Assembly (NCBI RefSeq): GCF_024700885.2
Contig: NZ_CP117016.1
Length of the DNA stretch: 64,000 nt
Strand: one strand, 5' to 3'
DNA from: Escherichia coli
GTDB lineage: Bacteria > Pseudomonadota > Gammaproteobacteria > Enterobacterales > Enterobacteriaceae
The translations under genes were made by a program, and so were the position numbers. The notes below the pieces were generated by a model. It saw nothing but the letters and a program-made list of their open reading frames with translations, was not told the origin of the DNA and ran no database searches. Positions within the stretch are counted from its first letter, which is position 1. Every line of letters starts with the position of its first letter. This document shows positions 58,619-58,694 of the stretch, piece by piece.

Positions 58619-58626
58619 GACAATTG

Positions 58627-58658
58627 TGCCGGATACAGCGCAAACGCCTTATCCGGCA
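58627..58658. repeat. REP-like palindromic unit downstream of gdhA
   Basis: TGCCGGATACAGCGCAAACGCCTTATCCGGCA. Confidence 0.6.
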
Positions 58659-58694
58659 ATAAAAATCTTCAGTATCAGATGGTTGAAAGAACCT

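Follow-up and report, generated by a model that had tools for sequence, protein, structure and literature searches.

An unoccupied, probably ancestral allele of a polymorphic site between gdhA and topB in Escherichia coli

Analysis of a 64,000-nucleotide stretch of Escherichia coli DNA (contig NZ_CP117016.1 of assembly GCF_024700885.2; hereafter the window) revealed a 76-bp interval between gdhA and topB, two convergent core genes, at the place where strain K-12 carries the gene ynjI. Comparison of this interval with other enterobacterial sequences indicates that it is probably the ancestral, unoccupied allele of a polymorphic site. The missing ynjI of the window is an ordinary presence/absence polymorphism, in which the window has a common allele and no private deletion. 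At this position ynjI is an accessory rather than a core gene, and the gene order of K-12 is not the reference state.

Results

The spacing of 76 bp between the stop codons of gdhA and topB, as given in the original prediction, is exact (Table 1). The statement that K-12 has ynjI between the two genes also agrees with the MG1655 annotation, in which ynjI (b1762, 346 aa, DUF1266) lies on the minus strand at 1,843,831–1,844,871 with gdhA on one side and topB on the other, rather than elsewhere with gdhA and topB adjacent. The YnjI protein of K-12 matches PF06889 (1.8e-25). In the window, the 76-bp spacer contains no ORF, no ORF between gdhA and topB belongs to PF06889, and a tblastn search over the whole 64 kb found no YnjI-like sequence. 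Strain 1190 is 100% identical to the window over 57900–59500, and its RefSeq annotation lists gdhA and topB with no gene between them.

Table 1 Features of the gdhA–topB interval in the window and of occupied counterparts at other loci (window positions, except where a locus label beginning with L is given)
Feature	Coordinates	Strand	Source or basis	Remarks
gdhA	57275..58618	+	ORF and translation	447 aa, NADP-specific glutamate dehydrogenase; stop TAA at 58616–58618; left core flank
Convergent gdhA/topB spacer	58619..58694	.		76 bp; empty allele of the insertion site
Single REP palindrome	58627..58658	.	Pattern match and fold	Usual CTAC end decayed to AATA
Intrinsic-terminator-like hairpin (58713–58735) and T7 tract (58736–58742)	58713..58742	+		In the topB 3′ end, antisense to TopB codons
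topB	58695..60650	-		651 aa from MRLFIAEK, DNA topoisomerase III; stop reads TTA on the + strand at 58695–58697; right core flank
Divergent E. coli ynjI allele	L094 4001–5032		GCA_014521985.1	71% (DNA) and 68% (protein) against K-12
P. faecalis ynjI	L097 4001–5032		Hadza gut metagenome contig	80% identical to that of K-12
Cassette in Nissle-derived SYNB1934	L006 1491–6001			Same site as window 58619–58694

Across 5,426 complete E. coli genomes, sequence searches revealed three main states of the site, which together account for 5,414 of them. The majority state is the presence of ynjI (3,506 genomes, about two thirds), and in 1,539 genomes gdhA and topB are contiguous as in the window. A cassette coding for an Hsp70-family protein and a J-domain/Sel1-repeat protein occupies the site in the other 369, including CFT073, Nissle and 536. 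The spacer specific to the window recurs in 1,494–1,530 genomes, some of them labelled O25b:H4-ST131. Sub-variants of the states were also found, and the genomes outside the three states include some with IS1-associated lesions. Within this one species, the same pair of core genes encloses differing content, as is characteristic of an integration hotspot. The earlier suggestion that ynjI is an insertion of the K-12 lineage stands in so far as the gene was inserted into an ancestral order that lacked it, but it is not specific to K-12, being the state of most E. coli genomes searched and occurring also in another Escherichia species and in P. faecalis. In annotation and pan-genome work, an absent ynjI should be treated as normal, as in O25b:H4-ST131 genomes. 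Literature searches on ynjI, DUF1266 and CP023386 found no description of the polymorphism, and the only relevant paper was one on regulation by BglJ-RcsB and H-NS. The polymorphism is visible in any comparison of annotated genomes and involves no new kind of element.

The cassette is a third state of the site that the original prediction had missed. Its Hsp70-family and J-domain/Sel1-repeat proteins have 566 and 647 aa, respectively, and 96 of the 369 cassette genomes (CFT073, Nissle derivatives and O18:H1) have an extra protein of 266 aa, for which no Pfam family was found. Klebsiella spallanzanii (L030) has, downstream of topB, an Hsp70 that is 77% identical and is paired with a J/Sel1 protein. 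A PADLOC scan of YnjI and the three cassette proteins gave weak and partial matches only (PDC-M61B, 1.9e-4; a PtuA fragment overlapping the Sel1 repeats), which gives no ground to regard ynjI or the cassette as a defence system. A BLASTP match of 49 residues between YnjI and the 266-aa protein (E 5e-4 in a single comparison) was also judged unconvincing.

With the TopB of the window as query, one genome of each bacterial species was scanned, which yielded 80 Enterobacterales loci, E. fergusonii not being among them. In 45 of the 80, topB and gdhA are convergent neighbours that lie −4 to 188 bp apart; these loci include Salmonella, many Citrobacter, Enterobacter, Kosakonia, Pseudocitrobacter, E. 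albertii, Escherichia sp. E1V33 and another Escherichia representative. Across Enterobacteriaceae, selD–topB is usually followed, beyond a short spacer, by gdhA in convergent orientation. We found ynjI at the site in only one species-representative locus, that of Escherichia sp. MOD1-EC7003 (91% aa identity). The flanks are adjacent in outgroups, as an ancestrally empty site would require, with the caveat that, between genera, ynjI and its flanks have equal dS. In other genera the interval has other cargo. That of Superficieibacter is about 1 kb long and has one unknown ORF, and that of Enterobacteriaceae isolate RIT691 (L046) is about 4 kb long, with unknown proteins and an orphan Hcp. In K. 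spallanzanii, an MFS transporter gene comes first, then those for an enolase-family enzyme, a LysR regulator and an Hsp70/J-Sel1 pair; intervals of 3.5–5.6 kb occur elsewhere. Such cargo fits what is known of small integration hotspots that are free of mobile elements and flanked by core genes.

Alignment of the window with three Escherichia empty sites (L007, L008 and L009) revealed a close correspondence of spacer, REP and TopB tail, with a near-identical segment comprising the hairpin and its T-run; the spacer itself is only ~80% identical to those of the other Escherichia species. Against K-12, the window aligns as far as the gdhA stop codon, and the match picks up again, at low identity, only ~25 nt into topB. 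On its gdhA side, the ynjI of K-12 is flanked by an inverted pair of REPs of a type unlike that of the window, and on its topB side there is no REP. Given that this REP pair and the K-12 TopB tail both differ from the window, removal of ynjI from a K-12-type allele would not yield the window sequence.

The 3′ end of topB varies with the state of the site. TopB has 651 aa in the empty allele, 653 in the ynjI allele and 648 in the cassette allele, and its last ~45 codons are allele-specific. Between the window and K-12, topB DNA is a mosaic of 91%–100% identity per 100-bp segment, most divergent at the 3′ end, and dS is 0.23 for topB and 0.06 for gdhA. The TopB tail of the empty allele matches E. 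albertii and Citrobacter. The tail linked to ynjI in Escherichia, ...KKSPPADEVGSGAIA, matches Pseudocitrobacter tails; that of K-12 ends in ...ADEVGSGAIA, which is missing from the window. The last 48 nt of K-12 topB (L001 5000–5047) are identical at 45 of 48 positions to those of a Pseudocitrobacter MAG (L023 9912–9959), against only about 82% identity in the rest of topB. These sequences suggest an exchange between genera of the topB segment that adjoins the insertion site. On the other flank, the last codons of gdhA in the window (58597–58615) carry five clustered substitutions (MLSQGVI versus MLAQGVI) that are missing from the other Escherichia examined, and the serine of the window motif is common to Pseudocitrobacter.

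Several features of ynjI point to a gene acquired long ago. Its GC content is 41% and that of its upstream spacer 35%, against 53%–55% in the gdhA, topB and selD flanks. The ynjI gene, which codes for an inner-membrane protein, is reported to be under repression by H-NS/StpA and activation by BglJ-RcsB (PMC3950696), a regulatory pattern typical of horizontally acquired genes. The YnjI family is narrow, with 8 clusters in a collection of 5.8 billion proteins, and its divergent members, where a contig allowed their placement, were also situated between topB and gdhA. No mobility gene was found at K-12 ynjI, and a search for direct or inverted repeats and target-site duplications bracketing it returned only chance-level short matches and the one-sided REP pair. 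The proposal that REP flanks mediated its gain or loss therefore finds no support, since the K-12 REPs lie on the gdhA side only, differ in type from that of the window and are accompanied by no bracketing repeats; a transposition-type event was rejected on the same grounds.

Two further ynjI alleles lie at the site (Table 1). The divergent E. coli ynjI, found in about 13 complete genomes, is saturated in dS against K-12, whereas its flanks are 98%–99.7% identical (dS 0.05–0.09). Over the promoter and the first 30 codons it hardly differs from the K-12 allele, which indicates a recombination breakpoint inside the gene. The metagenome contig with P. faecalis ynjI has flanks 98.8%–99% identical to the P. 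faecalis type strain, which is empty at this site (L024 9959–10107); presence and absence are thus polymorphic at the same site in two genera. Most economically, though by inference, ynjI would have been acquired long ago in some enterobacterial lineage and would since have spread, bound to its locus, by homologous recombination via the conserved flanks, together with the last topB codons and the REP pair. Such spread would explain the divergent, mosaic 3′ end of topB and the Pseudocitrobacter-like TopB tails. A bolder and more tentative possibility, which we consider doubtful, is that the site is a long-lived polymorphism across genera, with deep ynjI lineages and shared TopB tails, in which ynjI is kept polymorphic or repeatedly exchanged under some frequency-dependent selection and is perhaps functionally tied to the Hsp70/J-domain cargo. 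If that were true, the presence of Hsp70/J-domain genes as alternative cargo would hint at a functional theme shared with ynjI, since in K-12 the DUF1266 genes ybeU and ybeR are neighbours of hscC-djlC.

The absence of ynjI from the window could have arisen in other ways. The original prediction had allowed for a deletion in this strain, in which ynjI would have been excised from a K-12-like allele, for example via REP recombination. REPs are indeed present at the site in both alleles, and rare IS1-associated deletions occur at the locus in other strains (L005 and L089). However, the REPs of K-12, which differ in type, flank ynjI on one side only, and the excision should have left behind the K-12 REP pair and TopB tail, neither of which the window has. 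Orthologues of its spacer, REP and TopB tail are found instead at the empty sites of E. albertii and two further Escherichia representatives, and about 1,500 genomes share the allele. We saw no sign of a deletion in this strain and regard it as extremely improbable. It is also very unlikely that ynjI already stood at the site in the common ancestor of Escherichia and Pseudocitrobacter and that all empty sites reflect repeated independent losses, in which case the empty state would not be the original one of Escherichia. This history draws on the divergence of ynjI, which keeps pace with that of its surroundings: between K-12 and P. faecalis, dS is 1.32 for ynjI and 1.33 for topB, and against Escherichia sp. 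MOD1-EC7003 it is 0.29 for ynjI and 0.39 for the flank, with a dN/dS of 0.06–0.14 indicating a gene maintained by purifying selection. Yet a dS of about 1.3 is almost saturated and has little discriminating power, and many independent, scar-free losses would be needed across more than 40 species. Moreover, the Escherichia empty sites share an orthologous spacer free of deletion scars, and the narrowness of the YnjI family speaks against so old a residence.

The empty allele itself might have returned to this lineage by allelic replacement, the lineage having once had ynjI or the cassette and having regained the empty state by homologous recombination from an E. coli or other Escherichia donor. 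The haplotype would then still be ancestral and only its presence here secondary. The divergence of topB from K-12 is 3–4 times that of gdhA, which together with its mosaic structure suggests that recombination at and near the site has been frequent. The five clustered substitutions within the final 20 nt of the window gdhA, not seen in the other Escherichia sequences, are in keeping with replacement. The state of the site also switches within a single phylogroup, CFT073, Nissle and 536 having the cassette and O25b:H4-ST131 being empty, all of which belong to phylogroup B2. Against a recent import from another species, by contrast, stands the low identity between the window spacer and those of other Escherichia species. 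On balance, replacement seems rather unlikely, and it would alter only the route by which the allele came to be here, not its identity. The reading that the 76-bp interval is an ancestral, unoccupied allele remains the probable one.

The interval was predicted to contain a REP-like element, and one REP palindrome is present there. It fits the degenerate REP core GCCGGATNNNGCGNNNNCGCCTTATCCGGC without a mismatch, the matching sequence being GCCGGATACAGCGCAAACGCCTTATCCGGC at 58628–58657; 100 shuffles gave an expectation of 0 such matches. The hairpin folds with −21 kcal/mol (z −5.5). Comparison with Rfam naRNA4 gave a sub-threshold score of 30.3 bits (E 0.002), which supports a family resemblance. 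The GTAG/CTAC tetranucleotide at one end of a REP is the recognition motif of RAYT. In the window, this end reads ...CCGGCAATA, where ...CCGGCCTAC is usual, and the full 34-nt REP consensus with CTAC has no match at the spacer REP within 3 mismatches. The orthologous REPs of the three other Escherichia empty sites keep a CCTAC or CTTAC end. The copy of the window is a decayed one. It is extragenic, and only one other related copy occurs within the 64 kb, at 38237.

A terminator hairpin just inside the topB 3′ end had likewise been predicted, and both the sequence and the folding bear it out. Within the last 15 topB codons, GCCCGCC-N9-GGCGGGC is followed by T7, which on the gdhA strand has the form of an intrinsic terminator, a GC-rich stem-loop followed by a U-tract. 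The segment folds with −17.5 kcal/mol (z −4.6), a value that no shuffle equals. A consensus terminator scanner reported no terminator in 58300–59000, probably because the nominal loop of 9 exceeds the scanner limit of 8. The same hairpin, antisense to the conserved TopB motif KKSPP..E.AG, is kept with G-U-compatible variants in the empty alleles of Escherichia, Citrobacter, Kosakonia, Intestinirhabdus and P. faecalis. Its counterpart is degraded in K-12 (−7.2 kcal/mol, z −0.7) and weak or degraded in the cassette allele of Nissle; both of these alleles have cargo between gdhA and topB.

These features suggest how transcription may end in the empty allele. There, gdhA transcription would end at the predicted hairpin and U-tract that lie antisense in the last 15 topB codons. 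As this is the only strong hairpin with a U-tract downstream of gdhA, gdhA transcripts should end ~120 nt past the stop. REPs are generally established as stabilisers of 3′ ends or weak terminators. Read on the topB strand, the stop codon is followed after 37 nt by the REP hairpin, which has no U-tract and probably serves as a 3′ stabiliser or weak terminator of topB mRNA. Both roles are functions predicted from sequence and folding.

Comparison of the window with K-12 also revealed differences away from this site. Window positions 1–10478 hold a P2-like prophage tail module (tape measure, sheath, tube, a VgrG/Pvc8-family protein and tail fibre assembly) that abuts ihfA. The module is 100% identical in strains MLI114, 98208 and E-1246, has no counterpart in K-12 1,783,000–1,853,000, and is missing from strain 1190, which has btuC in its place. 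Between pheS and the pheM leader/attenuator, K-12 has a 147-bp insert (1,798,988–1,799,134) that is missing from the window (14255–14258). The insert has the terminal inverted repeats AGCCTATCCCATCAGG ... CCTGATGAGACAGGCT and looks like a miniature repeat element. The katE–chbG intergenic region differs by a small indel, with about 45 bp in the window (31233–31278) and about 256 bp in K-12 (1,816,124–1,816,380).

Discussion

The gdhA/topB site is a clean, small hotspot without mobile elements, and its turnover has left as a footprint the raised divergence and allele-specific C-terminal tails of topB, a gene of an essential pathway. Touchon et al. in 2009 and Oliveira et al. in 2017 reportedly described, by comparative genomics, chromosomal hotspots of E. 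coli at which accessory genes integrate between conserved core genes. As at such hotspots, the flanks gdhA and topB are constant while the content alternates between nothing, ynjI, the cassette and, elsewhere, other cargo. The site has no integrase or IS, and flank divergence and mosaicism are raised. It differs from them in being small, with zero to three genes, and in that ynjI is bound to its locus across genera and does not reside in a mobile element. YnjI, a DUF1266 inner-membrane protein, occupies the site in K-12 and is missing from the whole window.

The RNA-level features of the empty allele also have known relatives. Like a REP, the spacer element is an imperfect palindrome of ~32 nt that fits the REP core and is extragenic between convergent genes; unlike a BIME, it is a lone unit without a paired copy, and its CTAC end has decayed to AATA. 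Like the Rho-independent terminators of convergent genes, the predicted gdhA terminator has a GC-rich 7-bp stem followed by U7 downstream of the gene. Unlike them, it is placed within the coding part of the convergent gene itself, on the strand opposite the TopB codons, so that the TopB protein sequence and the RNA hairpin share the same bases. The predicted gdhA terminator in the last topB codons would thus be a compact case in which one stretch of DNA serves both as coding sequence and as RNA structure.
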